Source: Candidatus Omnitrophota bacterium
GTDB taxonomy: Bacteria; Omnitrophota; Omnitrophia; Omnitrophales; Aquincolibacteriaceae
Assembly: GCA_022709525.1 (NCBI GenBank)
Contig: JAKLIQ010000001.1
Coordinates: 338,679-402,678, forward strand
DNA length: 64,000 bases
Reading direction: 5' to 3'
Positions within the stretch are counted from its first letter, which is position 1; every line of letters starts with the position of its first letter. The position numbers were made by a program, and so were the translations under genes. This document shows positions 244 through 46,272 of the stretch, in pieces. The notes below the pieces were generated by a model. The model was given only the letters and a program-made list of their open reading frames with translations. It ran no database searches and was not told where the DNA came from.

Positions 244-404
244 AAAGGGACTCGTCGCTCGGGACTAGGGACTTGTTTGGGTTCCTGGTTTTTGCGAGTC
301 CCGCACTTGATCTCTTTAAAAATTTGAAAGATTATCAAGTGCTGCACTGGTTTCTGTCAAAAATTCAATGAAAACCAGGCGAGGAACTAGTCCCGAGTCC
401 CCTT
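244..404. repeat. Palindromic repeat element of the GGGACTCG/CGAGTCCC family, composite copy. Left module 247-302, right module 378-403, AT-rich core between them.
   Basis: aaaGGGACTCGtcgctCGGGACTAGggact...gCGAGTCCC at the left and gaggaaCTAGTCCCGAGTCCCc at the right are reverse complements. The element fills the convergent fabF/lpxA intergenic region. The same modules recur at 3008, 3424, 19032, 23002, 44557 and 46181. Confidence 0.75.
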
Positions 405-409
405 TAAAA

Positions 410-1261: not shown

Positions 1262-1394
1262 AGGGCGGATTATATCACAACCCAGACTAGAGACTGAAGA
1301 CCAAAGACTATTTGGCAATTCCCGCATTTTTCTATAGAACAAGTCGCAGAATTTCTCCCGACTTCTTCGTCGCCGTTCAAATTTTCCCAGCGAG

Positions 1395-1605: not shown

Positions 1606-1879
1606 TCTGAAGTCTGGAGAAATTTTTCTTTACTGCCTCTACAAATACCCGGGAATTGTCAGTAAAGACCAGAACAGAAGCAGGAAATGATTCCTGTTTT
1701 GTCGCCTTATGTCGTTTGTCTCACACTCTCAGACGATCCCTATGCTATATATTGCTAAAAATCGCTATATGTCTTAATGGTTAGTTTCATTTTCACTAAG
1801 GATGACAAAAATCAGAAGTTTGAGAAGAAAATACCCCTATGAAAAAATTGGAAAAAATGGACTTTTTTTCGAACCTCTC

Positions 1880-1908
1880 TTGCTTTACCCCCATGCATCA
1901 GTTATATT
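1880..1908 (+). promoter_or_regulatory. Candidate sigma70-type promoter for the giant ORF (TTGCTT-N17-TATATT)
   Basis: ttgctt at 1880-1885, 17-nt spacer, tatatt at 1903-1908, in an AT-rich region about 90 nt upstream of the 1999 ATG. Confidence 0.3.
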
Positions 1909-1998
1909 TTCGGCGACTTTTTTAAGACTAAGGAAAATGGGATAAAATCTCTTTCGAAATCAAGCGAAAAACCGGTCGAAAAAGGACGAAACAGCCGA

Positions 1999-4900
1999 AT
2001 GAATCAACGTAATCCATTCAAGACATATATTGCGGCGCTTACTGTTTTCGCTTTCTTTTTTACAAACCTCGGGATCACTCCGGACGCGTTAGCGGCGGCT
2101 TCGATGCCTACGCCTCGCAACATCTCCGGCAATCAAGCCGAAGTTTTGTTGCCCTACCAAGCCCGGCTTGATTCAAGCATCGGCTTTTCGATTCCCTCCG
2201 AACTTGGCTCCATCGAATATTTCAGGCCCGGAAAAGGCCCGGCGCTTATTCATATCCAGACCGCGCACGGGCATTACCAGGCCCAGAAACAGATCCAGCA
2301 GATCCTCCATCACCTTGATAAAAATTACGGTGTCAAAACCCTTTTCTTGGAAGGAAGCGGGTTTGAGCTGAATCCGGAGCTCATCCGTTTTTTCCCGGAC
2401 GATCATGCGCTTACTATGAAGGCCGCCGACGAGCTCACCAAACGCGCGCTTCTGAAAGGCCCTGAGCTCTTTTTGCTTGATAAGCTGTTCGAAAGCTCAC
2501 AAACAATCAAGCAAAAGACCACAGACCACAGACCGCAGACGACAGCTAAAGATTTTGGGCTCCAGTCTCCAGTCTCCAGTCTCCAGTCTTCCGAAGGCGT
2601 TCGCGCCTTCGGAATTGAGGAGCTTAAATCTTACCGCGAGAACGGCGTCGATTTTGTCAATGTCCTCGAAGCCAAACAAAAAACGCAGAATTTTCTCGCC
2701 GATATGGACATGGGGATCGAGCGTCTTTCCAGCCATTATCTTAATAAAGACCTCCGCGGTTTTCTCAAGCGCCTTGAGGCTTTTGAAAAAAATCAGATCC
2801 CGTTCGAGGATTGGCTTACCTATTTAAAAGGGGAGGCCGCCAAGCGCCTTGAGATGGACCTTTCGCAGGCCCAATATCAGATCGATTGGCCGATGATGGT
2901 CCGAATTTTCAAGATCCGCGAACTTACTTCTAAGCTGGACCGCCAGAAATTTTCAAAGGAGCGTGATGAGTTTTTAAAAACTATCAGGAAATATCTCTCC
3001 AAAAATTGGGACTCGCACCTCGGGACTCGTTCCTCGACGAGAAACCAAAACGAGTCCCTAGTCCCTAGTCCCGAGTCCCTTTATGGAGAAATCGAACGAT
3101 TACTTCGATCGGAGCAGGCAAGCGTCCAGCTTCCGGACCCTGAAACGAGTTTGCTGTTCGAAGACATGGTCCGCCAGCTTCCGGAAGATTTTGATTATGA
3201 AAAGTATCCCAACGTGCGTTATTTCATCGGCATGCTTCTTTTGCAAAGCGAACTAAAGGCGCAGATGCTCATGGAAGAAATGGATCGGTTGGTCGAAAAG
3301 ATCTCCGTCAAATTGGCCGACGCCCCGGAAGAGCAAAAACTTCTTGTCCTCTTAAAAGATTACCGCCTTCTCCAAAAACTTTTCGCGCTGGAACTTTTAC
3401 CGAAGGATTATGAAGCTATTATCGGGACTCGGGACTTGCACCTCGGGACTCGACTGAAACCCTCCAATATATGTGCTCGATTCAATGAAATCGGAAAGTG
3501 GCAAGCCGGAAACGAAAAAACGAGGAACTCAAACGAGCCCCTAGTCCCGAGTGACGAGTCCCGCGTGCGCCGGGTTGAATTTAAACATGTTGAAGATTTG
3601 GATGTATTATTCAATAAGGCGCTCGCATTCTACGCCGGCGTGAAGGAACGCGACCTCAAGATGGAGCAGCGGATCGAAGAGCGGCTCAAGGAAACGGGCG
3701 CTCAAAAAGCCGTGGTCATCACCGGCGGCTTTCATTCCCAGCCCTTTCGCGATCATTTTACGAACAAGGATTTTTCCTACGCTCTCATTTCTCCCAAATT
3801 GACCACGACTGACACAAAAGGCCGCGAAGAATATATCCAGAATACTTTACGTTTTACGCTTAAGTCGACAAAAGAGTCCGTTTATCCGGCAGATCCGGAG
3901 GTGCTCAGGCCTGAAAACCGCTATGGCTTGGATCAGGCCGCCATGCGTGCCGAGATCCGCCAAATCATCTCAGAAGTAGCCGGCCAACCTCAAACCAAAG
4001 ACCTGGAAGCCGCGCGAAAGCTTGTCGATAAAGCTTTTCAACAGGCGGCAAAAGAGGCAGGACTTCTTTACGATCCCCAAGTCGATGAAGCCGAGGCTCG
4101 TGACTTGGCCCAATGGCTTACCGTGACACCTAAAAATATTCCCTTCAGCCAGATCCTTCAGGACGTCCGCGATTGGTTTGCCGGCGCCGAAAGAAAACAA
4201 AAGTTAGAAAGCATTTCTGTTCCTACCCTTGATGTTCTTGCCACAGCCATTCCACAGGATGCCGGAAAAGGATCTGAAGCGGTTTCCCAATCGCGTGCGA
4301 CAGATCTTCAAAAAGAGCCGGAAGGGATGACCGCGCTCGACATCCTCAAAGGGATCGGCTTTGTTTTAGGCGTCAATGTCGCTTATCTAGGCGTCATTCT
4401 GATCATCGCGGCGATCCCCACCGTCATTGTGCTTACTTCAGCGGTGGCGCTTGGGGGTTATTTGGCCTACCAGGCCTTTCTTTGGGCCCAAGAAACATAC
4501 CAGAAGATCAGCGAAGGTATCCGTTCGCTTCCCCAAAATATAGCGGATAAAAAACAATCCCTGTCCCTAATGCTCAAAACGTGGAGTCAAATTTTCAAAC
4601 ATTTTTCCGCCGAGACGTCCGGCAAGTTCAATTACGACGAATTTGCGGAGCAGGTCCATAAAGAAAAGATCCGGATCGGACAACGGATCACGGTCTATCC
4701 CAAAAAAGGCGATCTGATCTCCGGCCGTTTCCATTATCTCAATAACGCGACCGGTTACTTATCCGTCTCGTCCGTTTCGACCGCGTCAGAACAGATTATC
4801 TCCCAGATCCACAAGGATGATATCGCGTTTATTGATGTCCCTCGCGATGTTACTCGCTCGGAAGCGAGAGTAGCCATAATGGTCATTAATGATGCTGTCT

Positions 4901-7900
4901 GGTTTGGGATGGATGCTGCATCGAAAGCGATTTCAATCGACGATTTAAAAGCCGCATTGCGTGAGTCTGATAGAGACTACATATCGGTGCAGCGTGACGG
5001 AGTTTGGCATTCCGTGTCTAAGGTTTTTGTCTACAGACATCTTAGATTTTATGAAAAAGACATTCAAAAAATTTCCAAAATCAAACAAAAAACGTTTGAA
5101 CCGGGAAAAAAGAAATTAATCCCTAAAAAAATTGCAGAAATTTTTCATCAGGCCCTTGCCGAACAATCAGATTTGACCGCTAAATTGATCGCAGCTATGG
5201 GAAGCGCTTATTCGCCCAAAACAGATGTCTTGAAGTCCAGGCGAGTTTCTTTGACAGAAATTTATAAAAATGCGATCGCAAAGCTCGAAAGGGAGCTCGC
5301 AAAGCTTGAGTCATCACTAACCTCTGAAGAGCGCTCTGCGGTTATAGATCGCATTGATGTTCATGTAAAAGTCGCAGGTTATGATGGCAAGCCTCGGGGA
5401 AATCCGCCTCATCGCACAGATTATAAAGTTGCTTTTGCGCTTCGTGACAAAAAAGAACCGCGCAAAACAAGTTCGATGGACGTCATCAATGAATTGTTCG
5501 CAGGTATAGATAATCATCATTATCCGGATCGTGATTTTTTATGGACGTTTTCTCAGGGTGGGCGATTGGGCGATGTTTATCGGCATGTGCGGGGGGAGCT
5601 TGCCTCGCGTCTTGAGTGGTTTGGACTGCTCCCCAACTCACTGTTCGGTTCCGATGAACGTTCTGTATATGTAAACAATGTTATCAATAACATTGAAGTA
5701 GATTTTACGATCCATGGTTTCGCATGGCCTAGCAACTACGCTTTGAATTATGAGGTATTTTTTGCACCTCGTTCCGAGGCGAGGGAATTTTCTGATGTGA
5801 AAACAACGCAAGAGCTCGGCGAATTCATGGCCCCCGTTATCGCGCAAGTCACGGAAAGGATTAAAACCTCCGAACCCTTTCAGGCGTCCAATATTTCAAA
5901 AAACTTGATCGAAGCAGGCCTCTACGACCCTTTGCCCGGCGACAAACAACACGCCTTTGAAGAATTAGGCAAGCAGGACACGCTTGATAAGACCGCTTAT
6001 TTCATGGGTCTCCAGATGTATTGGGCTATCGCCCGCGCTCCTGACCTTGAAAAAGCCAAAGAGCTTGCCGGGACTGTTGATGCCTATGCTCAATCCCGCT
6101 CCGAGGCGAGGAGTGCCGTGAATGAAGGGGCCATGCATGAAGCGGCTCGTAATATGGGTTATCAAGATTTAAAAGAGATCGCTGTTTCTCATGGCGAAAA
6201 TACCATTCCCAATATCGATGAATTTCTGGCCTATTTGAATACCTTTGAGACCGATCAAACGCAGGCGAGGGAAGAATGGTTTGTCAAATGGATTATGGAG
6301 TTCCGCATTATTGAAAAGCTAAAACAGTTCATTGGCGAACATGTCGCCAAGGGAGATGCAAAAGCTTTTGCTAAGGCGGAAGCAGCCTTTCAGGCATTGC
6401 AAAAAATCAATGCTACCGGACAAAGAATCCTGGCAAAGGCCAACCAAACGGCCCAAACGATCAGAACGCTCCAAGATCTGCATGCGATGCTTTCTGAGGC
6501 AAAAACCGCTATCTCAGAAGTTAAAGCCAGTTACCATTTGGAAGAAGAAGCTGGCCGCCAGGAATCCCGCTCGGAGATGAGGGTGAAGCGGACCGAGATG
6601 ATCCGGGACGTTTTATTTCGCGTGGGCATCGCCGTTCCTGTGGTCGCGATCGCCGGCGGTTTTGTCTATCTAGCTATTACTCACACCGCGCCCGTTTTTC
6701 TTTTTCAAGCTTCGTTGACGCTTCTGATCACCATGGGCTTTATCGCATTAGCAACGACATGGCTTAATCATCTTTTTGATCTGGTTCATCAAAAATTCCC
6801 GACTGAAAATCGAAGATTGTCAACGCCCGAAGTTTGGCTTATGGAAACGTTCGGCATCAAACTTAATTTCGGCCGTTTAAGCGGCCTTATAGGCCTGATG
6901 CTCCGGCCTTTAACTCCGTCTGTTTCGGCTCAAGATCAGAAACTTAAAAAACTGCCCGATCAAACCATGGGCGTCTGGCCATCGAATGAGGGAAAACCCC
7001 GTTTTGAAAATCACGATTTTTCCAAAAGAGCGCTACCAATCATTTTGGCAGGAGCGTTTGGCGCGACAGCTGCTTCTGCGCAACAAATCCAAATAACCTA
7101 TCCGCCAATGGACCCGCCTTATGGCGCCAACATGACACTGACTCATACCAATAAAGTCGCGCCGCAGGACGTTTGGGTCACCGCGTTCGCGTATTGGAAA
7201 ACCTCTCTTGTGGAAAGCACCGCCATTGTGACCACTAAGGTATATGATGCGCTTTTCAAGACGAACGATCCTTCTACGACAGTCTATTCAATCAAGCCGG
7301 CAATTTTTTCGAATGCTTCCCCAGTTTTTTTCTACGGCGATAAGTCAGAAACGCCCGTTGTTTCAGGTGGCAGCCTGCCTTCTACGGAAACAAATGTTCT
7401 TCCCAAAAACCCTTCCGCGGCAGACCTTTTAAAACTCCGAACAGACTTTGAACGTGAGCAAAAAGTTAAAGCGAAGGCGCTTGAAAAAAATCGTTCTGAA
7501 CTGAGGGGGAAATTTGCAAAATCGATAATCCTTGGCATTATCGCGTTAGCCGCTGGCTGCGCTACTGCTCCTGCGCCTTATGGTTATCGTCCCGCCGTTC
7601 CTTATGGCTATCCTTATAGTATCACTCCGAGCTGGAAACCGCCGGTTCCTAAAAGGATCAATATTCCAAAAGCGCCGCCCATGCCGCCGGCCGGGATCAA
7701 TATCCGGCCTCGGTCGGAGATCAGGACAACGGTCCGCATTGAAGTGCCGGAAGATGTTCCGCCGGAAAAGACCATCGCGCGATTTGTCCTCGATCAGTTG
7801 GGGAAACCGCTCAACGAGTCCGGAGACCAGGTTACTTTGGTCGATATCCTTCAAGGAAAAGCCATCCTTACCATTTTTACCAACACGGGAGAGTTTATTT

Positions 7901-10900
7901 TCGATCCCCGGGCACAGAGTCTCTCTGCGTTCAATCAGCCCGCCGGCGAGGCCTTGGCGATCGAATTCCAATTCCGTTCCGAGCTAAGAAATTTTCATGT
8001 TCAGGAAGTGAGACTCGATGTAGGCGATCTGAACAAACTTTCTGTCGAGGAAAGAGAAGAAGCTATTGCCAAAAAAATCAAAGATGGTAAGACCAGGATC
8101 TACCTTGGCACATCGATTGAGAACGATCGGTTGCAGTGGGATATGGATCGTGATATTTCCGCCGCGCATGGCCTTGTCAGGGACGCGCGAGTTTTAGCGG
8201 TCTCATTGCAGAAAATAGGAATTCCGGTCCATATGGAATTCCTTAAATTGCCCCTCGAGGTGCGGAACGATGGGACCTGGAGCTTCATCGAATATGACTA
8301 TTATTTTGCCGTTGGGGAAGATCACGCGGAAATATTAAAAAGATTTATTTTGCGTTTGCGGGCGTTGGCCAACGCTTCTACTCTGGGCGATCAAGGATAT
8401 GTAAGACTTCCCGAGGGCATTCTTACGGACGAAATAGAACGGTTTACCGAAGAATACATCGGCCGTTCGGAGACGAGAGCTCTTCCTTCCGTTGAAAAAT
8501 TGATCGGGAAAATAGAAGCGGCCTTGAAAGCCTTCGCGATTCTTTCTAAAACGATCGATAAAGGCGTGATTAATATGTGGGCTAAGGGCTTATATAAGAA
8601 CATGGAGCCTTGGGTGAGAGAGGCGTATGACGATTTGGTTAAATTGATTGGGGAAAAGGCCCAAAAAAGCGATGAACAAGGCGTTCGAGACGCCATCAAT
8701 CAGGTTGAAAAAATCTTTCTCGCCGAAAGGCGGTTCTTGAAGGCAATATTTGATTCAGTGCCAGAGGAGGAAGTATGGCTGTTCACTGAATTTATCGCAT
8801 TGATATGGGACGAACATTCCGACATAAGCAATGCTCTTGCGGACGCTTCGATGAAATTTGAGAAAAACAATTCCGCATTTTCCCTCGAGCTGTCGAACAA
8901 GGCTGATGATACCCGCCCCTCGCTTTCAGACGCGCAGGATCCGGATGATGGCCCGGCCCCGGCCAGCGCCGAACCCTCAACCGCCCCACGTTCCGAAATG
9001 AGGAGTTTACTTGTTGTACAAATGCCTACCACCATGCATCCGGAATTCGCCCTCTCAACTTTTATCATGAACGCTATGAAGGAACATAATTTAAAAAGGC
9101 AGGACGAACGGGGCAATATTTTATTTGAAATTTATGTCAATATGAGGGATGGTCAAAGAATGCTTTACACCGACTTCATTAAAAGCAAGCTTCATAGTTC
9201 CGATGAATTATCTGCGATCTATAATATTCAAAATATTGAATTTGTTTCGACTCCTTCCTTTCAGATCAACACTCCTAAAGATTTGCCGGAAGTGATTATT
9301 GCGCTCGAAAAAGACGCAGAAAAATTGAACAATTTACCGATGGCCGCCTGGAAATCATTGAAGGATGAAGTCTTAAGCCACGCTGAAATTTTCTTAAATA
9401 TCGCTGAAAATTTAGCTGGAACCGATCTTGAGCGTAAAGAGCGGCAAGTAGTTTTTTTACAGATCTTAAAAGGCATTCAAACAATGATCGCATTACCTTT
9501 TCTTGCGGATCAAGAAGACACAAAAGCCAAAAAGATGGCTCAGCGGATTACAAATCTTTGGTTCTTAATTGGCGATGAACTTGAACAAGCGCGTTTGGAC
9601 GGGATAAAGAAGGCCGCCGAAAAACGATACGGCCGGCCAATTGATGTTAAAAAATTAAAAAATGAAATGGGTTCCGCCCATGTTGCATTTGACAAAACCT
9701 CCAACACGCTAGAAGTCGAAGATCTGCCTACTGATATTTGGAGCCCTTATCCGGCGGACCGTATGGTCTCCACTTATCTTAGCCCCGCCATTCTCAGGCA
9801 TCTGCTCGAAGGCTTATCTTTATCCGTGGATGTTGCTGGCGACATGGTACTTCCTTCGAAAGTGGGTTCCATCTCCATTCAGAAATTAGAAGTTCTTATT
9901 AAAGAAGCGATTGATAAAACGGTAGAAGATAAGGCGAAAAAGGATGGAATCGGTGACCCCTCAAAAATTGAGAAGCTCAAAGCTGATCCAGTTGCTAGAT
10001 TTAACGCGCTAGTCAAATTAGAAAATGATGTTCGAAAAAGTCCGGACGAAGCCATTCGAGTCATGCACAGCCAGGGTGTTACAACGATCACCGAAGCTGT
10101 CTTTGTGGAATTTATGGGGGATTTTCTCGCGGCCATGCTGCTGTTAAAGACAGCTCAAAATTGGCAGTTTAAAAAAGAAGGGTTTGAGGCAAATCACGTA
10201 CTTCTTGAAAATATCCAGAAAACCTTGAGTCTTTCTCAGATTGGGCTCGAGGACATCGCTCTTCGGCTTGTTTCCCTTAATATTCCCCTAAATATCATCG
10301 AGCAGGTCATTCAAGGAAAGATGAACAACCTCGAAAAATTTGAGGCTCAAGGAAATGTGATCGTTATGAAGGGCGGGGTCGTAGAGGTTTTAGCTGCAGG
10401 CGGAAAAGCTGCTCGGTGGCGTTCTTCACTAGTGCCATTATTAAAAAATAAAATCATCGAGGATGACGTGGCGGCTAACCGCAATGATCTTCCGCGAGCC
10501 CTTGCGGCTTATTGGTACGGGGATTTTAGTTCCGGAGGCGGCACAGGGATATCACTCGCGATGGATAATCTTACTCATTTAGCGCAACGAGGTTACCCCG
10601 TTCGACTTGCGTATATTTTAAGCCCGCATACATGGCGTACCTTTATGGAAGCAACATACGGGCTTCTGAAAAGATATAACCAGAAAAAAGCAGTTAAAGT
10701 TCCTGTGGAAGCCATCGCCCAAAATACCAGCAGAGCTTGGGTGATCGCAGGAGACGAGATCAAGGAAGAAGATAGAAATGTGCTGGGACATGGGGATGTC
10801 ATGGGAGTGGTTTTTGCCGCCATCCAGGGATTAAAAAATGGGCAGGTTTATGCTATTCCTCGTTCAGCGGACGGACCGACAGCCCAGCTTGGACAGAAGC

Positions 10901-13900
10901 AATTTGAGAGGATTTTGGGATTTATGGCAACCAATACCGTGGCCCATGTTGGTATTGGGAATTGGAGAAATCTTGGTCAGGCAGGGGGAGGATTTGTCAC
11001 CGTCCAAGGACAGCCTGATATTGTTGATACAGCCATTCCAAAAAAAGAAAATGAAAAAAACGGATTTTTAGCTGATCGAGATATTAATCTGTTTTCAACT
11101 TTTATTAATGTTCTGAATTATGCAACCCTTCTTTACGCGATCTCCGACAATATTACAATTGAAGACCAACCGCTTATCTCATGGGATGAGGTGCAGTCTG
11201 TTTCAAGGATGGAAGAAAGTTCAATGACGATTTTGAAACAGCGTTTGGCAAAACTCAGCATTGAACAAGAGCAGGAGATCGTTCGTAATTTTATGAATCT
11301 TTTGCCTTCGGAATATGTTTTAAAGTCGGAAGATGTTCCGAAAGAGGAAGGTTCGAAAGAGTTTGTAAAGAAAGAATTTATACAATGGGAACAAATTAGC
11401 GGAATGTGGCATGGCGCAATTGAAAAAAGAATAAAGGAACGACATGCTCAAGAGAGAGTCCCCGTGCAATGGTCTAAGCCTCTAAGCTATGCAAATGCAG
11501 ATATAAGCTTAAGAGAATTTTCCATTCTTACTCAGCGAGGCGTTCAGGAGTCCGTTCCGTTATTTGCAGAGGTAAAGTCTGTTGTGGATTTATATGCTTT
11601 TCAGCCGCTTGTGCAGAAAGGAATAAAAATTTTAGCGGATAAAGATGTTTTAAGTTCAGAAGTCGGGCAGGATGCCGTGCGGCCTTCCAAGGGTATGGTT
11701 TTAAGAATCAATTCCGAGACTGCCGCGCGACAGCAACTTGCTTCTTTTGCCGCTAAGGGGGCACAGGTCTATTTGGGAAAAAATTTGGTATTTGAAAAAG
11801 GAGCTGAGCTCATTATTACCATCAAGGATTTTCATCGAGGCGTTAGCCTTAAAATAGGCGATAACGCGACATTTTATGGTGACGTTTTATTGCATCTTAA
11901 AGGAGGAGCAGTTGTTGATATTGATAGCGGCGCACAGGTTGGCAGCCCCCTTCTTTCCAGATTAAGATTAACGCTCGAAGATGGCTATTGGCTTCACATT
12001 GAAAGAGAAGCCATGCAAAAAATACTAGAAATGCTGGAACAGAAAGACAAAAAGATTGGAACTGAAAAAGTTGTTGAGCAATACAAAGATTTTGTAACCA
12101 CTAATTTTTTAAGCAAGGCTCGATTTGTTCGACTTCTCGTTGATGCTCTTGCAAATAGTAAAGAGATTAATGAGAATCTGAGAAAAAATGCTGAAGAGGC
12201 AGCTAGGGGAATTGATGTATTTGAAAAAAGGTCGGAACCAAATGCTCGCGCGGAAATGCGGACGCAGCAGGAAGAAGTGCCGGCGGAAGTGGCGCGCCTG
12301 ATCGATGGCGAGATCGTGCCGAAACTGGAGAGGCAGGCGGGCATTATCGAAAGTTTCAAGTCCGGAGAAACCAGTATTGCGAACCTGGCGGTAACCTTTG
12401 ATAAATCGCGTTTACGCGGGATAGCGGGTGAAGTCTATCAAAAGATCTCCAATGCCATTCCGCAGGGGAGCAGCGTTTCAGCCCAAAGTCTTTTTAGTTT
12501 CTTCTATTCGGCCCGTTCAGAAGACGAACATCATCTCGCGGCGCTTTATGCGGCCAATTTAGCCGAAGATAACGACCGTTTGGAGGTCCTTAATTCCGAA
12601 AGGCGGATCCTCTCCCAGGAGCCCATCAATTCAACGATCCTTGCGAGAAAAGAATTCGCCGAAGCTTACGCCAAAAAACTTTTCCTTCTCTTCTCCCACA
12701 ACGCCAAGGGGGAAAGCATTGCGTCAGCCATATACCGCGTTCTTCAGCGCTACGAAATGATAACCCCCGTGAACGTAAGCGCTCGGGACGTTGAGATCGT
12801 CGTTTTAGCTAACCTTCTTCGAAATATGCTTACACCCCAGCAGCTTGAAAAGGTAGCCTGGGACACCCTTATGGAAGAAGCGAGCGCTCTTTTCAACGAG
12901 ATCCAGCGGGTCACTTTCAATTGGAGCGATCTTTCGGCCGAAGCCAAACGCTCGGAAGTCCGGGATACGATTTATGAAGAGGTAAATGACCGGGCGAAAG
13001 AGATCGTAAATATTATTCGTGGGATCGAACAAAATGGGGAACTTAAATCTGTTGAACCCATCCAGCAACACGTGATGGCGCTGCAATCACTTTTTTTAAA
13101 CGGCAACCGGGGTGAGGATATAGCCCGGCAGTTGAGGTCGAAAGCCCCAGCCCTTTCCATCGGCGGTCTTGAACAGATCGCAGGTTATATGACCGCAGCC
13201 TGGCTTTTAGCCAGTTTTTTTGATGAACAGCTTAGAGTATGGCAAGGAAATGAGGACGTAAGACGTGATTGGCATTCCGTTTCCACTCGCGAAGTTCCCG
13301 ATCTTATAAAAGGCATCAACTACGCGTTTGTTCACGGGAAGGTTTTTAAGACTTTTGATTGGATGTCCTCCTTAAATGCAGATAGTTATGACCATGATAA
13401 AGCCATGAAATTTTTCTATAACGCGTTAGTGGAATGGGGGATCGTTGCGCCTTTTTCTTTCCAAAACGCGAAAGGCATTGTCAGGCCTGAATCCATTGTT
13501 TTTTCTCTTTTAAGTTCGGATCATATTTCCACTTTTTCTCAGAAAAAGTTCTTTGAAGAATTAAACGGGCGCTTGGCCAGTCCGTACTTTCCGTTAAAGG
13601 ATTCTGTCAAATTGTGGGTACGCACGCCTCGACCGGAAGCGCCTTACGCTTTTGAAGTGTTGACTCTAAAGACGTCATCTTTTGTTGATTCTGGAACCGA
13701 AATATCGCCGGTGAAATTTTTTGAACAAGCTATCAGTCAGTTGAAGACCAAGCAAATTAATGATATTAAAGACCTCAATGAATTGCTTGCTCGCGTGATG
13801 CGTGTTGGGATTGTCTATGCCGGCCGGTCGGAATTGAGGGAATCAGCAATTTCAAAACAGACCACAGATCAAAAATCACAGACTGTAGCTCAACTTTCAA

Positions 13901-14721
13901 GATTTGGCTCTCAATCCTCGGAATGGGTGGGAGGAGAAGCGGCTTCGATGCTTCCTAAAATCCAGAATTCCCTTTATCCAAGTTATAGTGAAGTTCAAAC
14001 GGACGTTATGGTGATCCGTCAGCTTTATCAGGAAGAATATCTTTATAAAAAAATTGTCAGATATTTTCGCTCCGGCATCATTCCGTTAAAACTTTGGAGC
14101 GCCCTCCGGAAGGCGGGCGCGCTTGGCAGGACCGTGATCGAACGCATCGCCGGTATTTCTTTCGCGGATGCAGCGAAAACCGGATCGGCCGTTCACGAAG
14201 CTACTTTGGCCGATCTGCCAAAGTCGTTCAAAGAATATCATAGGTTCAACCTGGCTCAAGGCGTCTTGCTTTCGATGGATAAGGGAAAGATCGCCGATGG
14301 CTTGATTTTCAGCCGGAAGTTCGCTTTTAGTCGCGGCGCAATCGCGGCAGCTCGTACGGTCTTAGGCGATGTCCCCTTGGCGATGGTGAAGGCCGGTATG
14401 AGCGCGAGGGAAATCCAATTTGTCGAAAATCTTAACCTTCAGTTTAAAAAAGCCGGGCGCAAACAGGCCGAAATTTTTCTCGCTGAGACACCCGAACAAG
14501 CATTGCAGTATCTGCGGGCGAACAAAGCAACCCGTCTGAGGGCGCTTTTTGACGAGAGCGAGGAGAACGATTCTCTGGCTATAGCCCTTAAAAACCAGCT
14601 GCCGGATATCCAATTCGTCAGTAATGCCGAGTTCCAGAGCTTCCTCGGCTACGCCGGCACCGAGATCCAGAAACTGGTCGCCAATGTCCAAGGCCAGTTC
14701 GCCATCCGTAGAGCTGCGTAA
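1999..14721 (+). CDS. Giant secreted/membrane-associated protein of unknown function (4240 aa)
   Basis: One stop-free reading frame of 12,723 nt. N-terminal signal-peptide-like segment (KTYIAALTVFAFFFTNLGITPDALAAA). Hydrophobic helix clusters near aa 800-850 and 1535-1600. Pro/Tyr-rich segment with an internal lipobox-like LAAGC near aa 1840-1890. Recurrent RSExR motif. Coiled-coil-like stretches. No recognisable catalytic motif. In-frame palindromic repeat insertions at 2521-2612, 3008-3079 and 3424-3562. Confidence 0.85.
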   Translation: MNQRNPFKTYIAALTVFAFFFTNLGITPDALAAASMPTPRNISGNQAEVLLPYQARLDSSIGFSIPSELGSIEYFRPGKGPALIHIQTAHGHYQAQKQIQQILHHLDKNYGVKTLFLEGSGFELNPELIRFFPDDHALTMKAADELTKRALLKGPELFLLDKLFESSQTIKQKTTDHRPQTTAKDFGLQSPVSSLQSSEGVRAFGIEELKSYRENGVDFVNVLEAKQKTQNFLADMDMGIERLSSHYLNKDLRGFLKRLEAFEKNQIPFEDWLTYLKGEAAKRLEMDLSQAQYQIDWPMMVRIFKIRELTSKLDRQKFSKERDEFLKTIRKYLSKNWDSHLGTRSSTRNQNESLVPSPESLYGEIERLLRSEQASVQLPDPETSLLFEDMVRQLPEDFDYEKYPNVRYFIGMLLLQSELKAQMLMEEMDRLVEKISVKLADAPEEQKLLVLLKDYRLLQKLFALELLPKDYEAIIGTRDLHLGTRLKPSNICARFNEIGKWQAGNEKTRNSNEPLVPSDESRVRRVEFKHVEDLDVLFNKALAFYAGVKERDLKMEQRIEERLKETGAQKAVVITGGFHSQPFRDHFTNKDFSYALISPKLTTTDTKGREEYIQNTLRFTLKSTKESVYPADPEVLRPENRYGLDQAAMRAEIRQIISEVAGQPQTKDLEAARKLVDKAFQQAAKEAGLLYDPQVDEAEARDLAQWLTVTPKNIPFSQILQDVRDWFAGAERKQKLESISVPTLDVLATAIPQDAGKGSEAVSQSRATDLQKEPEGMTALDILKGIGFVLGVNVAYLGVILIIAAIPTVIVLTSAVALGGYLAYQAFLWAQETYQKISEGIRSLPQNIADKKQSLSLMLKTWSQIFKHFSAETSGKFNYDEFAEQVHKEKIRIGQRITVYPKKGDLISGRFHYLNNATGYLSVSSVSTASEQIISQIHKDDIAFIDVPRDVTRSEARVAIMVINDAVWFGMDAASKAISIDDLKAALRESDRDYISVQRDGVWHSVSKVFVYRHLRFYEKDIQKISKIKQKTFEPGKKKLIPKKIAEIFHQALAEQSDLTAKLIAAMGSAYSPKTDVLKSRRVSLTEIYKNAIAKLERELAKLESSLTSEERSAVIDRIDVHVKVAGYDGKPRGNPPHRTDYKVAFALRDKKEPRKTSSMDVINELFAGIDNHHYPDRDFLWTFSQGGRLGDVYRHVRGELASRLEWFGLLPNSLFGSDERSVYVNNVINNIEVDFTIHGFAWPSNYALNYEVFFAPRSEAREFSDVKTTQELGEFMAPVIAQVTERIKTSEPFQASNISKNLIEAGLYDPLPGDKQHAFEELGKQDTLDKTAYFMGLQMYWAIARAPDLEKAKELAGTVDAYAQSRSEARSAVNEGAMHEAARNMGYQDLKEIAVSHGENTIPNIDEFLAYLNTFETDQTQAREEWFVKWIMEFRIIEKLKQFIGEHVAKGDAKAFAKAEAAFQALQKINATGQRILAKANQTAQTIRTLQDLHAMLSEAKTAISEVKASYHLEEEAGRQESRSEMRVKRTEMIRDVLFRVGIAVPVVAIAGGFVYLAITHTAPVFLFQASLTLLITMGFIALATTWLNHLFDLVHQKFPTENRRLSTPEVWLMETFGIKLNFGRLSGLIGLMLRPLTPSVSAQDQKLKKLPDQTMGVWPSNEGKPRFENHDFSKRALPIILAGAFGATAASAQQIQITYPPMDPPYGANMTLTHTNKVAPQDVWVTAFAYWKTSLVESTAIVTTKVYDALFKTNDPSTTVYSIKPAIFSNASPVFFYGDKSETPVVSGGSLPSTETNVLPKNPSAADLLKLRTDFEREQKVKAKALEKNRSELRGKFAKSIILGIIALAAGCATAPAPYGYRPAVPYGYPYSITPSWKPPVPKRINIPKAPPMPPAGINIRPRSEIRTTVRIEVPEDVPPEKTIARFVLDQLGKPLNESGDQVTLVDILQGKAILTIFTNTGEFIFDPRAQSLSAFNQPAGEALAIEFQFRSELRNFHVQEVRLDVGDLNKLSVEEREEAIAKKIKDGKTRIYLGTSIENDRLQWDMDRDISAAHGLVRDARVLAVSLQKIGIPVHMEFLKLPLEVRNDGTWSFIEYDYYFAVGEDHAEILKRFILRLRALANASTLGDQGYVRLPEGILTDEIERFTEEYIGRSETRALPSVEKLIGKIEAALKAFAILSKTIDKGVINMWAKGLYKNMEPWVREAYDDLVKLIGEKAQKSDEQGVRDAINQVEKIFLAERRFLKAIFDSVPEEEVWLFTEFIALIWDEHSDISNALADASMKFEKNNSAFSLELSNKADDTRPSLSDAQDPDDGPAPASAEPSTAPRSEMRSLLVVQMPTTMHPEFALSTFIMNAMKEHNLKRQDERGNILFEIYVNMRDGQRMLYTDFIKSKLHSSDELSAIYNIQNIEFVSTPSFQINTPKDLPEVIIALEKDAEKLNNLPMAAWKSLKDEVLSHAEIFLNIAENLAGTDLERKERQVVFLQILKGIQTMIALPFLADQEDTKAKKMAQRITNLWFLIGDELEQARLDGIKKAAEKRYGRPIDVKKLKNEMGSAHVAFDKTSNTLEVEDLPTDIWSPYPADRMVSTYLSPAILRHLLEGLSLSVDVAGDMVLPSKVGSISIQKLEVLIKEAIDKTVEDKAKKDGIGDPSKIEKLKADPVARFNALVKLENDVRKSPDEAIRVMHSQGVTTITEAVFVEFMGDFLAAMLLLKTAQNWQFKKEGFEANHVLLENIQKTLSLSQIGLEDIALRLVSLNIPLNIIEQVIQGKMNNLEKFEAQGNVIVMKGGVVEVLAAGGKAARWRSSLVPLLKNKIIEDDVAANRNDLPRALAAYWYGDFSSGGGTGISLAMDNLTHLAQRGYPVRLAYILSPHTWRTFMEATYGLLKRYNQKKAVKVPVEAIAQNTSRAWVIAGDEIKEEDRNVLGHGDVMGVVFAAIQGLKNGQVYAIPRSADGPTAQLGQKQFERILGFMATNTVAHVGIGNWRNLGQAGGGFVTVQGQPDIVDTAIPKKENEKNGFLADRDINLFSTFINVLNYATLLYAISDNITIEDQPLISWDEVQSVSRMEESSMTILKQRLAKLSIEQEQEIVRNFMNLLPSEYVLKSEDVPKEEGSKEFVKKEFIQWEQISGMWHGAIEKRIKERHAQERVPVQWSKPLSYANADISLREFSILTQRGVQESVPLFAEVKSVVDLYAFQPLVQKGIKILADKDVLSSEVGQDAVRPSKGMVLRINSETAARQQLASFAAKGAQVYLGKNLVFEKGAELIITIKDFHRGVSLKIGDNATFYGDVLLHLKGGAVVDIDSGAQVGSPLLSRLRLTLEDGYWLHIEREAMQKILEMLEQKDKKIGTEKVVEQYKDFVTTNFLSKARFVRLLVDALANSKEINENLRKNAEEAARGIDVFEKRSEPNARAEMRTQQEEVPAEVARLIDGEIVPKLERQAGIIESFKSGETSIANLAVTFDKSRLRGIAGEVYQKISNAIPQGSSVSAQSLFSFFYSARSEDEHHLAALYAANLAEDNDRLEVLNSERRILSQEPINSTILARKEFAEAYAKKLFLLFSHNAKGESIASAIYRVLQRYEMITPVNVSARDVEIVVLANLLRNMLTPQQLEKVAWDTLMEEASALFNEIQRVTFNWSDLSAEAKRSEVRDTIYEEVNDRAKEIVNIIRGIEQNGELKSVEPIQQHVMALQSLFLNGNRGEDIARQLRSKAPALSIGGLEQIAGYMTAAWLLASFFDEQLRVWQGNEDVRRDWHSVSTREVPDLIKGINYAFVHGKVFKTFDWMSSLNADSYDHDKAMKFFYNALVEWGIVAPFSFQNAKGIVRPESIVFSLLSSDHISTFSQKKFFEELNGRLASPYFPLKDSVKLWVRTPRPEAPYAFEVLTLKTSSFVDSGTEISPVKFFEQAISQLKTKQINDIKDLNELLARVMRVGIVYAGRSELRESAISKQTTDQKSQTVAQLSRFGSQSSEWVGGEAASMLPKIQNSLYPSYSEVQTDVMVIRQLYQEEYLYKKIVRYFRSGIIPLKLWSALRKAGALGRTVIERIAGISFADAAKTGSAVHEATLADLPKSFKEYHRFNLAQGVLLSMDKGKIADGLIFSRKFAFSRGAIAAARTVLGDVPLAMVKAGMSAREIQFVENLNLQFKKAGRKQAEIFLAETPEQALQYLRANKATRLRALFDESEENDSLAIALKNQLPDIQFVSNAEFQSFLGYAGTEIQKLVANVQGQFAIRRAA
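2521..2612. repeat. Heptamer tandem repeats (CAGACCA-type, then CCAGTCT x4) followed by a perfect 9-bp-arm palindrome, in frame inside the giant ORF
   Basis: ccacagaccacagaccgcagacgacagc ... ccagtctccagtctccagtctccagtct ... ccgaaggcg-ttc-gcgccttcgg. Encodes QTTDHRPQTTAKDFGLQSPVSSLQSSEGVRAFG. Homologous peptides and DNA occur at 13855-13925 and 18975-19058. Confidence 0.7.
3008..3079. repeat. GGGACTCG/CGAGTCCC nested-palindrome element inserted in frame in the giant ORF
   Basis: GGGACTCGcacctcGGGACTCGttcctcgacgagaaaccaaaaCGAGTCCCTAGTCCCTAGTCCCGAGTCCC. Same architecture as the intergenic copy at 23002-23075. Translated as GTRSSTRNQNESLVPSPES with no stop. Confidence 0.8.
3424..3562. repeat. 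GGGACTCG/CGAGTCCC element, larger copy with a 65-nt core, in frame in the giant ORF
   Basis: GGGACTCGGGACTtgcacctcGGGACTCG ... 65 nt ... cgaggaactcaaacgagcccCTAGTCCCGAGtgaCGAGTCCC. Translated as GTRDLHLGTRLKPSN...NSNEPLVPSDESRV. Confidence 0.8.
13855..13925. repeat. CAGACCA-family heptamer repeat copy, in frame near the C-terminal third of the giant ORF
   Basis: cagaccacagatcaaaaatcacagactgtagctcaactttcaagatttggctctcaatcctcg encodes QTTDQKSQTVAQLSRFGSQSS, parallel to the copies at 2521 and 18975. Confidence 0.55.
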
Positions 14722-14732
14722 CGATAAAGCAG

Positions 14733-14850
14733 TAGGTAGTAAGTAGTAGATGGTAGGTGGCAGACGGTGTGGCAAAGTCCGTTTTGCGCTTTGTTCACCA
14801 CATACTGCTTACCACATACTACCTACCAGTTTTTACTTCTCTCTTTCGAC
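14733..14850 (+). terminator. Long imperfect hairpin made of GTAG/CTAC repeats followed by a T-rich tract. Candidate terminator of the giant gene.
   Basis: gtaggtagtaagtagtagatggtaggtgg (14733-14760) is complementary to ccacatactgcttaccacatactacctac (14798-14827). Perfect 10-bp outer stem gtaggtagta/tactacctac. Downstream agtttttacttctctctttcg. Confidence 0.4.
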
Positions 14851-23001: not shown

Positions 23002-23082
23002 GGGACTCGGGACTAGTTCCTCGGGACTCGAAAACGAGGAACCAAACGAGTCCCTAGTCCCGAGGGGCGAGTCCCGGTTTTT
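23002..23082. repeat. GGGACTCG/CGAGTCCC nested-palindrome element, compact intergenic copy with a trailing T-run. Likely acts as terminator after the PNP gene.
   Basis: GGGACTCGGGACTAGttcctcGGGACTCGaaaacgaggaaccaaaCGAGTCCCTAGTCCCGAGgggCGAGTCCCggttttt. Confidence 0.8.
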
Positions 23083-44556: not shown

Positions 44557-44620
44557 GGGACTCGTTCCTCGGGACTCGTCTCTTGTTTTAACGAGTCCCC
44601 AGTCCCAAGTCCCCGTTTTT
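44557..44620. repeat. GGGACTCG/CGAGTCCC element, intergenic copy plus T-run after the guaB3-like gene
   Basis: GGGACTCGttcctcGGGACTCGtctcttgttttaaCGAGTCCCcAGTCCCaAGTCCCcgttttt. Confidence 0.75.
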
Positions 44621-46180: not shown

Positions 46181-46272
46181 CGGGACTTGGGACCAGGGAC
46201 TCGTTTCTCGTTCTTTTTTGGTTTTTTGTAATCATTTAACGAGTCCCGAGGTACGAGCTGCGAGTCCCGAGC
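46181..46272. repeat. GGGACTCG/CGAGTCCC element, intergenic copy immediately upstream of the dnaE start
   Basis: cGGGACTtGGGACcaGGGACTCGtttctcgttcttttttggttttttgtaatcatttaaCGAGTCCCGAGgtacgagctgCGAGTCCCGAGc ends 1 nt before the dnaE ATG. Confidence 0.75.

Follow-up and report, generated by a model that had tools for sequence, protein, structure and literature searches.

In-frame heptamer-array hairpins in a giant Omnitrophota gene and related copies between genes

Small dispersed repeats in Nostoc were reportedly described by Elhai and colleagues in 2008. Palindromic repeats lying in frame within genes have hitherto been a curiosity mostly from Rickettsia, whose palindromic elements (RPEs; Ogata et al. 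2000) measure approximately 105-150 bp, have a sequence specific to each family and encode a conserved peptide (PMC10969869, PMC3184786). A preliminary description of the locus analysed here called such behaviour rare elsewhere, which was an overstatement, as in-frame ERIC, BOX, RUP, BRE and cyanobacterial MITEs have been reviewed (PMC3184786, PMC10969869). REP/REPIN sequences carry GTAG or CGTC at one end of a 20-40 nt imperfect palindrome, are linked to a RAYT (Y1 transposase) and are essentially extragenic (PMC3733652, PMC3116915). Heptamer repeats form a further group of described systems, comprising the G-rich heptamer SSRs of Xanthomonas (GGGAATC/GGGANTN) and Nostoc (GGGGA(C/T)T, STRR-type), in which GGGANTN occurs as at least two tandem units with approximately four preferred (Rehm et al. 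2015; PMC4692102), and the TAACTGA direct repeats of Beggiatoaceae, Cyanobacteria and Bacteroidetes (PMC4679880). Palindromes, hairpins and heptamers go unmentioned in two preprints on giant genes of Omnitrophota. At the locus described below, palindromes built of heptamer arrays lie both between genes and in frame within them.

In-frame inserts of the giant protein

The giant ORF that hosts the inserts lies at 1999..14721 on the plus strand of the window (the whole 64-kb stretch of DNA that was analysed) and is listed at 4,240 amino acids. Its N-terminal domain of approximately 560 residues is a conserved family domain (HMM match at nt 2191-3858), for which comparison with Pfam gave no family and comparison with PDB folds gave no significant match (best E 0.09). 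Fifteen protein homologues, several of them named by their source as Omnitrophica or Omnitrophota, and 80 metagenomic loci were collected; stop-free stretches of at least 1,500 amino acids are also present among the relatives. In-frame inserts occupy four sites of the protein (sites 0, 1, 2a and 2b, the last two flanking one helix). The three inserts of the window's ORF are all located in the first 1.6 kb of its 12.7 kb (the first 13%), and no further hairpins were found within it between 3600 and 14721.

Two copies of a palindromic element had been reported inside this ORF without stop codon or frameshift; both are present, and the peptides quoted for them are those which the ORF frame encodes. 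Copy 1, at site 1 (3008..3079, plus strand; 72 nt, 24 codons), is a complete hairpin of the GGGACTC family with an arm of 29 nt, a loop of 14 nt and a second arm of 29 nt (GGGACTCGCACCTCGGGACTCGTTCCTCG / ACGAGAAACCAAAA / CGAGTCCCTAGTCCCTAGTCCCGAGTCCC). The palindrome reaches outward, TCTCCA (2996-3001) pairing with TGGAGA (3084-3089), and the predicted RNA folding has an MFE of -30.2 kcal/mol (z -2.9). Site 1, at HMM position 232, is the most frequent insert site (32 loci).

For copy 2 the in-frame palindromic arms stood, while the notion of a single inserted unit did not: because its arms enclose conserved host codons, it is a split hairpin. The left, G-rich arm (site 2a; 3424..3452, plus strand; 29 nt, GGGACTCGGGACTTGCACCTCGGGACTCG) encodes GTRDLHLGTR, and the loop motif with the right, C-rich arm (site 2b; 3520..3562, plus strand; 43 nt, ACGAGGAACTCAAACGAGCCCCTAGTCCCGAGTGACGAGTCCC) aligns in register with the loop and right arm of copy 1 at 84% identity. 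The 67 nt between the arms are not element DNA, and 13 host codons within them (LKPSNICARFNEI; 3454..3492, plus strand) are kept in insert-free orthologues; the extra residues are only those of the left arm and roughly GKWQAGNEKTRNSNEPLVPSDES. The predicted RNA folding of copy 2 has an MFE of -47.5 kcal/mol (z -2.9).

A third in-frame insert, overlooked in the preliminary description, is found at site 0 (2482..2592, plus strand; 37 codons by the codon map; peptide KLFESSQTIKQKTTDHRPQTTAKDFGLQSPVSSLQSS) and is missing in 13/13 aligned homologues spanning the region. It holds an array of four AGACCAC units (2516-2545) and one of four CTCCAGT units (2560-2589; both from TRF), which pair poorly (4-5/7 complementary). 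The same AGACCAN/CCAGTCT family was found at site 0 in L132 and at site 1 in L128, L132 and L135. At the start of the insert there is an inverted copy of the host flank, forming an 11-bp perfect inverted repeat (2471..2516, plus strand) in which TTTTGCTTGAT (2471-2481, codons F-L-L-D) recurs as ATCAAGCAAAA at 2506-2516. The corresponding flank in L129, L136 and L139 reads TTTCTGTTGGAT-NAG-ATCCAACAGAAA, which is not present at insert-free loci.

The AlphaFold2 (AF2) model of the domain (mean pLDDT 82, pTM 0.72, 255/556 residues at 90 or above) places the inserted peptides as disordered loops on a confidently folded domain. The pLDDT falls below 50 in six stretches, five of which lie within or edge the inserted peptides, values below 50 being given both to DSHLGTRSSTRNQNESL of copy 1 and to residues 444-459 of site 2b, while the sixth consists of three residues outside the inserts (311-313, SVQ). 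For the host segment between the arms of copy 2 the model predicts a helix, with a low-confidence loop on either side. On this prediction the insert positions fit the protein fold as surface loops, as is the case for RPE-type insertion.

The segments are insertions, as they are absent from every site in 30 of the 69 fully readable orthologous loci, and each single site is empty in approximately 50 of 70-78 readable loci. The inserts cluster at HMM positions 97, 232, 354/357 and 371 of 473, and the domain is otherwise collinear across the aligned homologues. Orthologues encoding the same peptides with non-palindromic DNA had been proposed as grounds for rejecting the insertion view; distant orthologues lack the segments altogether, and in the closest relatives (L126/127, L128 and L129) the segments recur together with the palindromic DNA that encodes them. 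Within the clade, site 1 is empty in L134 and site 0 in L126. Identical inserts were recovered from independent assemblies (L126/L127, L137/L138, L125/L181 and L002/L142).

The four sites are hot spots, at which at least nine heptamer families were found (GGGACTC, AGACCAN/CCAGTCT, AGTACGG, GGATGGA, GGAGAAC/GGGAAAC, CACACGG, GCAACGC, GTCACCA and CAAGATC), together with unrelated palindromes of the GAAGCAATC type. Autocorrelation of the inserts at lag 7 was 0.4-0.6, compared to 0.25 at other lags. By our own reading of a rough NJ tree, gains outside the main clade number approximately eight and are scattered. The split hairpin around LKPSxIxxRF occurs in three heptamer families (GGGACTC, GGATGGA and GGAGAAC), in each case with complementary arms.

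The expectation that insert lengths are multiples of three holds for 70 site-inserts, all in frame, and fails in one frameshifted lineage, which is off by one 7-nt unit. This retention of frame argues that the inserts are translated. The heptamers within ORFs are stop-free in the frames used, whereas the stop-containing GGTAGTA and GTACATA were found only between genes.

The repeat family between genes and in a second gene

The octamer GGGACTCG occurs 22 times in the window compared to 2.66 +/- 1.64 times in 100 shuffles (maximum 8), an approximately 8-fold excess; the two copies in the giant ORF did not arise by chance. The family which it marks consists of dispersed imperfect palindromes of approximately 72 nt (59-86 nt in the window), the arms of which are arrays of 7-nt units, (GGGACTN)3-4 at the 5' side and (NAGTCCC)3-4 at the 3' side. 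The element ends are GGGACTCG / CGAGTCCC, and single arms are direct arrays rather than palindromes. Seven loci of the window belong to the GGGACTC family (four complete intergenic copies, two in the giant ORF and one arm in a GldG-family gene), and they have two variant units, GTTCCTC and GCACCTC, as well as the loop motif ACGAGGAAC(C)AAA in common.

The canonical intergenic copy (23002..23075, plus strand; arm 29 nt, loop 16 nt, arm 29 nt; MFE -43.7 kcal/mol, z -4.7) starts 5 nt past the stop of a PNP_UDP_1 gene and is followed directly by GGTTTTT, with 13 nt separating its end from the IleRS start. The copy in the IMPDH/GMP-synthase spacer (44557..44615, plus strand; MFE -27.8 kcal/mol, z -4.3) also begins 5 nt past a stop and is followed by TTTTT, and that in the GMP-synthase/DnaE spacer (46183..46268, plus strand; MFE -36.3 kcal/mol, z -3.0) begins 12 nt past the stop, leaves 4 nt to the next start, and has a loop of 36 nt and no T-run. 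The fourth, 3' of lpxA (247..402, minus strand), is split by approximately 70 nt bearing a second small hairpin; read on the minus strand, its G-rich arm comes first, 7 nt past the stop. The G-rich arm thus lies 5-12 nt past a stop in 4/4 complete intergenic copies, the minus-strand lpxA copy included. A heptamer hairpin of another family (GTAGTAG... / ...CTACTAC; 14727..14830, plus strand) stands 5 nt past the stop of the giant ORF itself, with a T-run behind it; its family, whose sequence includes stop codons, was found only between genes. By a rough count there are seven intergenic heptamer-array loci and four genic sites in the window, nearly all of whose DNA consists of long ORFs.

A T-run (at least 4 T within 3 nt) follows 2/3 complete plus-strand GGGACTC copies (23002 and 44557) and the 14727 hairpin. 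The in-ORF copies are mostly without one, site 2 ending in GCGTGCGCC, and the GGGACTC-family hairpins at site 1 are followed by CTTTAT or CTTTTT. The position and form of the intergenic copies suggest that they may act as terminators. A scanner for the terminator consensus (loops of at most 8 nt), run on positions 1-20000, listed no element as a whole hairpin and gave no clear excess over shuffles; an Rfam scan of the whole window at the gathering threshold returned only RNase P RNA and one tRNA, leaving the elements unmatched. Every GGGACTC copy has its G- or purine-rich arm on the 5' side with respect to transcription. Over all scored elements that arm was 5' in 36/52 and not in 16, by an automated test that is noisy, includes host sequence and draws on phylogenetically non-independent loci, so that purine polarity across families is a trend only.

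The GGGACTC family was also found 3' of genes in other Omnitrophota (L042 and L121). The likening of these repeats to RPEs is thus right as a description of their behaviour. As for their being mobile, dispersal and in-frame position were borne out and strict mobility was not: inspection of every copy by eye revealed no target-site duplication, and no transposase was present among 11 window ORFs scanned against Pfam. A contig search with GGGACTNGNNNCTCGGGACT gave, among the matches listed, pure (GAGTCCC)n arrays in Lysobacterales, Xanthomonas, Acidobacteriota and other groups; two of the listed matches are from Omnitrophota, both lying outside the window.

GldG is a second gene with one hot spot that behaves alike. 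Its in-frame heptamer insert (18981..19060, plus strand; encoding QQTTDIRPQTTDKTRTQVPSPEERVP) sits in the 3' part of the gene and is chimeric, with a left array of ACAACAG/ACAGACC and a right array of GAGTCCC. Homologues of base length (449-452 amino acids) are without it, and the DNA of three GldG homologues has different heptamer hairpins at the same spot; in L209 the GGGACTC family is found inside GldG, with four perfect units. Predicted folding was weak both here (18975-19065, z 0.0) and at site 0 (2505-2600, z -1.1).

Proposed copying, conservation and the readings compared

The inserts are conserved at the nucleotide level in excess of the genes that carry them. Among the window, L126, L128 and L129 the arms are 82-97% identical, while third codon positions are 45-53% identical; the site-2a arm of the window is 86-97% identical to those of the three relatives, and the 45-nt site-2b module (to 3564) 82-89%. 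Between L126 and L129 the site-2 module is the best-conserved 60-nt window (97%, compared to 70% overall). The hairpin and flanks of L151 and L125 (approximately 100 nt) are identical save for one 7-nt unit, in genes sharing approximately 48% of third positions. By exactly that unit the L125/L181 gene differs from the in-frame L151 and is split, the break being present in two independent assemblies; the truncation of P0011 (76% identical) falls at this position too. Chimeric and half elements both occur, and inverted copies of host flank are found at site 0 (11-12 bp) and site 1 (6 bp).

On balance it is probable that the elements are RPE-like, terminator-like heptamer hairpins which are copied between copies, tolerated in loops and encode passenger peptides. 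Their home position would be the spacer directly 3' of a gene, from which copies or single arms would enter ORFs, we infer, not by cut-and-paste transposition but with other copies as templates for gene conversion or replicative template switching. Survival within a gene would call for a heptamer that is stop-free in any frame, a total length that is a multiple of three, and a tolerant surface loop able to accept 10-40 extra residues, mostly polar and disordered; because only four such sites would exist in the N-terminal domain, the same sites are struck repeatedly in varied lineages and by varied families. Ongoing copying between copies would hold the arms near the family consensus and near each other, whole inserts may pass between species as short recombination patches, and gain or loss of one 7-nt unit would shift the frame and possibly split the gene. 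The encoded peptides show no sign of contributing to protein function and are presumably neutral passengers.

Several observations count against this reading. Neither a transposase nor a target-site duplication was found, nor any donor/recipient pair. A split hairpin in three families is hard to obtain via independent insertions and resembles compensatory evolution of a structure; confinement of the inserts to the first 1.6 kb is not predicted by random insertion with a tolerance filter; and the non-random polarity hints at a constraint at the level of the transcript or specific to the strand. The above-background nucleotide conservation could equally reflect purifying selection on RNA or DNA structure.

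Several of these observations favour a functional role, in which the in-ORF hairpins would be cis-elements of the giant mRNA or DNA selected at fixed positions near its 5' end, for example translation-dependent attenuators aborting the 12.7-kb message when ribosomes lag, or RNase III or pause sites by which the level of expression is set, their sequence being free provided that the arms pair. In addition to the split hairpin fixed in position with complementary arms in three heptamer families, such a role would fit arms more conserved than synonymous sites, the presence of every insert within the first 13% of the ORF, a polarity constant relative to transcription, the resemblance of intergenic copies to intrinsic terminators and the CTTTAT or CTTTTT after GGGACTC site-1 hairpins. 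It is nevertheless unlikely: 30/69 orthologues, long ones included, are without any hairpin, sites are sometimes empty within the clade (L134 site 1, L126 site 0), and most in-ORF copies are missing the U-tract, site 2 ending as given above. Some arm pairs are chimeric or only 4-5/7 complementary, with the weak z values noted for 2505-2600 and 18975-19065; the unrelated GldG behaves alike in its 3' part; and sequence identity is retained within a family beyond what pairing needs.

A more speculative possibility, which we regard as unlikely, is that the hairpins are traces, rather than inert junk, left by a sequence-specific system new to the literature, which writes or overwrites genome-specific 7-nt arrays at hairpin-prone sites of Omnitrophota genomes, with polarity fixed to transcription; in a variant, the in-ORF hairpins would be translation-gated checkpoints near the starts of giant genes. 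Such a system would account for complementary arms of differing heptamers at orthologous sites, including both sides of the helix, for near-identical arms across species while the gene saturates synonymously, and for the inverted host-flank copies beside arrays. If true, it would perhaps exist also in other phyla with dispersed heptamer arrays.

Origin in place is also unlikely. Slippage would expand a chance heptamer, fold-back template switching would make the second arm, and similarity between loci would be convergence on replication-favoured heptamers. Differences in unit number are indeed whole heptamers, adjacent host flank is copied inverted, the two arms of a hairpin are not always of one family, the matches listed include pure (GAGTCCC)n arrays from many unrelated phyla, and GGGANTN-type heptamer SSRs are known in Xanthomonas and Nostoc (PMC4692102). 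Convergence leaves unexplained the non-repetitive details, as copies across loci and genomes share GTTCCTC and GCACCTC in the same order together with the loop ACGAGGAACCAAAACGAG, and the L151 and L125 elements are identical over approximately 100 nt within diverged genes.

It is very improbable that the arrays are retained as contingency loci, at which gain or loss of 7 nt would phase-vary the giant surface protein or GldG. A unit of 7 nt is not a multiple of three, and L125/L181 differ from L151 by one unit with the gene split in two independent assemblies, P0011 being likewise truncated; in the P0011/P0013 lineage the split seems stable across species rather than switching. Arrays of only 3-5 mostly imperfect units are short for efficient slippage, and 70/71 site-inserts are in frame. 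Fast phase variation was dropped, since no indel was present in any array among 11 locus pairs at 93.8-100% identity (ten at 99.5% or above, several with inserts). An intragenic inverton was rejected as well, as the flipped arm-to-arm segment gains stops in the window, L126, L128 and L129.

That the segments are ancestral low-complexity linkers or assembly artefacts is scarcely conceivable: they are common to the closest relatives, and MAG assemblies can collapse or create repeats, but they are missing at 30/69 readable loci and from approximately 50 of 70-78 per site in an otherwise collinear domain, their DNA matches intergenic copies in the same window, the TyrRS protein encoded beside the giant ORF is identical on 10 contigs from several samples (the full-length ORF being on only 1/3 contigs shown), and the four assembly pairs named above carry identical inserts independently.

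Comparison with described repeat systems

Many Omnitrophota-like genomes are now found to share in-frame behaviour of the kind known from Rickettsia. The repeated filling of four loops in one protein, and of a single loop in GldG, amounts to a natural experiment on insertion tolerance and repeat turnover, and the excess nucleotide conservation, co-varying split hairpin, inverted flanks and one-unit frameshift allele bear on how repeats spread. The dispersed heptamer repeats of cyanobacteria (STRR) and Xanthomonas (GGGAATC), long unexplained, are thereby linked to hairpin/terminator elements and to protein evolution. For annotation, the inserts inflate and fragment MAG gene calls (the P0011 and P0013 halves) and create spurious 'low-complexity' segments in giant proteins.

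The elements are outside the RPE, REP and MITE families. They resemble RPEs as dispersed palindromes located between genes and in frame in unrelated genes (here seven loci), in adding peptides, probably translated here, at fold-compatible positions, and in that neither has a known transposase. They are set apart from the RPEs described in PMC3184786 and PMC10969869 by length and architecture, being 7-nt-unit arrays of approximately 60-75 nt in a different phylum, with arms that are separable or of mixed families and with many families replacing one another at one orthologous site.

REP/REPIN sequences (PMC3733652, PMC3116915) are likewise short palindromes at the 3' ends of genes, in species-specific families that are homogeneous within a genome and without target-site duplication. 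Here, unlike in those sequences, there is no GTAG/CGTC end tag, the arms are not palindromes, there is heptamer periodicity and genes are also entered; no RAYT gene was seen within the 64-kb window.

SPRITE, RUP and BOX of Streptococcus pneumoniae, BRE of Bordetella, intragenic ERIC and cyanobacterial MITEs are similar in being small hairpin or, in the case of SPRITE, Rho-independent-terminator-like repeats that are sometimes in frame in coding sequences (PMC3184786, PMC10969869). In contrast to the elements here, they are of MITE-like type (100-300 bp, with terminal inverted repeats and often target duplications) and lack heptamer arrays; recurrence in many families at orthologous protein sites is not reported for any of them. 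The flanks of the present elements carry no direct repeats and are inverted (TCTCCA..TGGAGA at site 1; A-tract/T-tract between genes).

The TAACTGA repeats share with them a single heptamer present 2-6 times at many loci, a patchy phylogeny and an unexplained mechanism of spread, but are direct, stop-containing, placed just upstream of starts and rarely in ORFs, whereas inverted pairs past stops are found here. GGGACTC fits the unit of the GGGANTN SSRs, and its arms are of 3-4 GGGACT(C/A/T) units with degenerate ones interspersed. Four GGG tracts are present only on the strand complementary to 3051-3079, most arms having three, and a G-quadruplex is probably not the common denominator, since non-G-rich heptamers behave alike. 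What distinguishes the present repeats from the GGGANTN SSRs is that they form inverted, hairpin-forming pairs, in frame at recurrent genic sites.

In-frame palindromes in the giant gene

The octamer GGGACTCG occurs 22 times in the window on both strands, against 2.66 +/- 1.64 (maximum 8) in dinucleotide-preserving shuffles. The matches group into seven loci, each an imperfect palindrome whose 5' arm consists of 3-4 tandem 7-nt units GGGACTN and whose 3' arm is a complementary NAGTCCC array, and the loop frequently includes ACGAGGAAC(C)AAA. In the cleanest copy (23002-23075), two 29-nt arms enclose a 16-nt loop. The period of 7 was confirmed with Tandem Repeats Finder, and no Rfam family matched the element loci.

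The preliminary description had placed two such palindromes in frame within the giant ORF (1999-14721, plus strand; 4,240 codons), and this observation was confirmed; copy 1 (3008-3079, plus strand) is a full-length element whose 72 nt make up 24 whole codons. Copy 2 proved not to be a single inserted unit. Its two halves flank a conserved protein segment, forming a split hairpin: the left arm (3424-3452, plus strand) is separated from the loop motif and right arm (3520-3562, plus strand) by 67 nt that start with the LKPSNICARFNEI codons, and these codons are host sequence, conserved in insert-free orthologues. Predicted RNA folds had minimum free energies of -30.2 kcal/mol for copy 1 (3000-3090; z -2.9), -47.5 kcal/mol for copy 2 (3418-3566; z -2.9) and -27.8 to -43.7 kcal/mol for the intergenic copies (z -3.0 to -4.7). 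A third in-frame insert, absent from the preliminary description, was identified at 2482-2592 (plus strand); in it a spacer separates AGACCAC x4 from CTCCAGT x4, and all 13 aligned homologues covering that region lack the insert. No comparable hairpins were found in the remaining giant ORF (3600-14721). If translated, the inserts would give rise to tryptic peptides across their junctions, such as NQNESLVPSPESLYGEIER and NSNEPLVPSDESR.

Related loci were collected as DNA (n=86, giving 79 distinct domain sequences with the window included) and aligned to a 473-state HMM of the N-terminal domain, inserts being scored at a threshold of at least 4 residues. Such inserts were nearly confined to four HMM positions, namely site 0 (position 97; 19 loci), site 1 (position 232; 32 loci), and sites 2a (position 354/357; 21 loci) and 2b (position 371; 23 loci), which flank the LKPS segment and together form site 2. 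All sites could be read in 69 loci. Of these, 30 were insert-free and 39 carried at least one insert, and all three regions were occupied in nine, the window among them; the insert-free modal lengths of these regions are 24, 30 (range 30-39) and 81 nt. Comparison with orthologues lacking the elements thus bears out the earlier claim and, as judged from the alignment, the in-ORF copies are insertions. When the domain from the window was modelled with AlphaFold2 (mean pLDDT 82, pTM 0.72), five of the six stretches with pLDDT below 50 fell in or at the edge of inserted peptides, the sixth being three residues long, and the LKPS segment was predicted as a helix between two such stretches.

Neither a Pfam match for the giant protein nor a significant PDB fold match for its N-terminal domain (which contains the motifs HIQTAHG and VITGGFH) was obtained; the protein homologue P0012 combines this N-terminal domain, as a fusion, with one of the isocitrate lyase / PEP mutase type. 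Two assemblies, L125 (1650-1710) and L181, carry an extra in-frame palindrome, GGGGACTGTCCCC ... GGGGACTGTCCCC, directly before the conserved VVITGGFH motif, a position which may be a fifth tolerated site. A recurrent insert site was also observed directly past the domain, after ..YIQNxL, with a GTACGGC-type hairpin in the related locus L001 (4277-4381) and the CAACGCA/GCGTTGA type in L122 (860-979) and L123 (1341-1460); it is empty in the window.

Repeat families at shared sites and a second host gene

The palindrome type found at a given site differs between genomes. At site 1, GGGACTC was present in the window, the paired loci L126/127 and L131; AGACCAN/CCAGTCT in L128, L132, L135 and L137; AGTACGG/CCGTACN in L001, L122, L133 and L136; GGATGGA in L123; CACACGG in L129; GGGAAAC in L130; and non-heptamer palindromes of the GAAGCAATC type in L002/L142, L144, L147, L178 and L124. 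The split layout at site 2 was built from GGGACTC (window, L126/127, L128 and L129), GGATGGA (L123 and L134) or GGAGAAC (L133 and L135), and in other genomes a whole hairpin lies on just one side of the LKPS segment. Heptamer-built inserts gave a lag-7 autocorrelation of 0.4-0.6 compared to approximately 0.25 at other lags, and most inserts folded more stably than shuffles (z -2 to -11). In a rough NJ tree one clade, which includes the window, holds nearly all heptamer-bearing loci, with by our reading about eight additional gains scattered outside it; the repeat families do not track this tree.

Directly upstream of site 1 in L126 (3688-3715), L128 (3742-3770) and L135 (1698-1720) lies a hairpin of 6-9 bp made up of the host's codons for A(L/I)RRF.... 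Its two sides change in concert from one genome to the next (CTGCGGC/GCCGCAG, TTCGAAGGT/ACCTTCGAA and GCCATC/GATGGC), and it is missing in the window.

A single hypervariable spot in the GldG-family gene (17761-19332), bounded by GPLPVAVA and GRMI(I/V)VGDGDFL, contains in the window an in-frame chimeric insert (18981-19060), in which a left-hand ACAACAG/ACAGACC array is combined with a right-hand GAGTCCC array. Homologues of base length have 449-452 amino acids, and others are longer by 10-50 residues with heptamer-array peptide signatures. At the DNA level this spot holds a perfect GGGACTC x4 hairpin with the loop motif of the window family in L209, the GGATGGA/GGCGGAG type in L210 and the AGACCAT/GTGGACC type in L211, so that in-frame heptamer inserts are not peculiar to the giant ORF. 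The window belongs to an Omnitrophota-like bacterium; homologues of both host proteins carry the names Omnitrophica or Omnitrophota from their sources. Downstream of GldG, L211 (2960-3385) has 3-4 tandem units of approximately 85 nt, each with a terminal GGGCGTCATGA, where the window has a short spacer; L210 alone among these relatives has a 23S_rRNA_IVP-family gene (PF05635; 1044-1430) between the ABC permease and GldG genes.

Gene-end copies, reading frame and proposed mode of spread

Four complete GGGACTC-family copies in the window occupy gene-end spacers, and one right-hand arm lies within the GldG-family gene. Three plus-strand copies separate the co-directional genes PNP/IleRS, IMPDH/GuaA and GuaA/DnaE, and the fourth, on the minus strand, follows the 3' end of lpxA. 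The copies begin 5, 5, 12 and 7 nt after a stop codon and end 4-13 nt before the next start, and two of the three on the plus strand run straight into a T-run. With respect to transcription, the G-rich arm is the 5' one in every copy, including that on the minus strand. The family was also found 3' of genes in the Omnitrophota MAGs L042 and L121 (among the matches listed). A heptamer hairpin of another family (GTAGTAG... / ...CTACTAC; 14727-14830) lies 5 nt past the giant ORF stop and is followed by a T-run; its unit contains stop codons, and this type was seen between genes only. Stop-containing families (GGTAGTA and GTACATA) were confined to the DNA between genes. Heptamers observed within ORFs contain no stop codon in the reading frames that they occupy.

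An AGACTAN x4 array (1284-1310) lies in the spacer between the divergently oriented lpxA and giant ORF. It falls inside a mechanical ORF (410-1405) but is probably upstream of the point where lpxA really starts; in L001 a GTACATA hairpin occupies the corresponding position. A 14-nt unit, GCAGTTCAGAGTCC, is present twice at 57430-57500, followed by a partly complementary stretch, directly upstream of a tRNA (57518-57591), and the RNase P RNA lies at 58061-58454. The TyrRS protein, encoded next to the giant ORF, was unchanged on 10 contigs from several samples.

All 70 site-inserts fell within a single-frame HMM match, with the exception of one lineage, represented by the independent assemblies L125 and L181, where a site-2a AGACCAA x5 / GGTCTTN hairpin shifts the gene to another frame. 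The related L151 has the same hairpin in frame; hairpin and approximately 45 nt of upstream flank differ by a single flank mismatch and an additional 7-nt unit but are otherwise identical, while only about 48% of third codon positions are shared with the related frameshifted gene. The protein homologue P0011 (76% identical to P0013) breaks off at this point too. One-unit slippage therefore does toggle the frame. Fast phase switching by the arrays was ruled out, since no array indel was found in 11 near-identical locus pairs (10 of them at least 99.5% identical).

Conservation was compared among the window, L126, L128 and L129. Nucleotide identity was 86-97% for the left arm and 82-93% for the right module, against whole-domain values of 45-53% at third codon positions and 73-82% at first and second positions. 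No other 60-nt stretch of the domain is as well conserved between L126 and L129 as that of the site-2 module (97% versus 70% overall), which takes in the enclosed host codons (95% identical). The arms are either under nucleotide-level selection or held near the family consensus by copying between copies or species.

The window's site-0 insert opens with an inverted copy of the adjoining host flank (TTTTGCTTGAT at 2471-2481, inverted as ATCAAGCAAAA at 2506-2516), and L129, L136 and L139 have TTTCTGTTGGAT-NAG-ATCCAACAGAAA there, though the heptamer families that follow differ; no such inverted repeat was found at site 0 in insert-free loci. The window's site-1 palindrome reaches outward into TCTCCA...TGGAGA, its site-0 arms are complementary at just 4-5 of 7 positions, and the GldG-family insert has one arm of ACAGACC units and the other of GAGTCCC units. 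No direct target duplication was seen at the elements. Taken together, these features suggest that replicative template switching and ectopic gene conversion fit better than cut-and-paste transposition.

Overall account and relation to known repeats

We consider it reasonably likely that these are terminator-like heptamer-array hairpins which would multiply by copying, those landing in genes being filtered for frame, lack of stop codons and tolerant loops, and the inserted copies being homogenised afterwards. Three features fall outside this account: the split hairpin with its co-varying arms, the clustering of inserts towards the 5' end of the giant ORF, and the fixed polarity. They leave room for a functional or machinery-based reading.

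The likeness to Rickettsia palindromic elements (RPEs) drawn in the preliminary description is supported as behaviour, as both are dispersed palindromes lying in frame and in loops (PMC10969869, PMC3184786); however, the window elements differ in length, architecture and lineage, and RPE membership was rejected on these grounds. Neither the GTAG or CGTC tag and palindromic unit of REP/REPIN sequences nor the target duplication of MITEs was found, and two Omnitrophota giant-gene preprints make no mention of such elements.

Long, pure (GAGTCCC)n arrays of up to approximately 14 units, some in inverted pairs (L062), were observed among the matches listed (L003-L120) in Lysobacterales, Rhodanobacter, Xanthomonas, Acidobacteriota, Gemmatimonadota, Vicinamibacterales and a Geobacter, so the same heptamer is common to several phyla. 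GGGANTN heptamer repeats are described from Xanthomonas and Nostoc, with approximately 4 units located at most 50 bp past stop codons and depleted in coding DNA (PMC4692102). The window arms match this unit; what is new relative to that work is the inverted pairing, the families that are not G-rich and the recurrence in frame.
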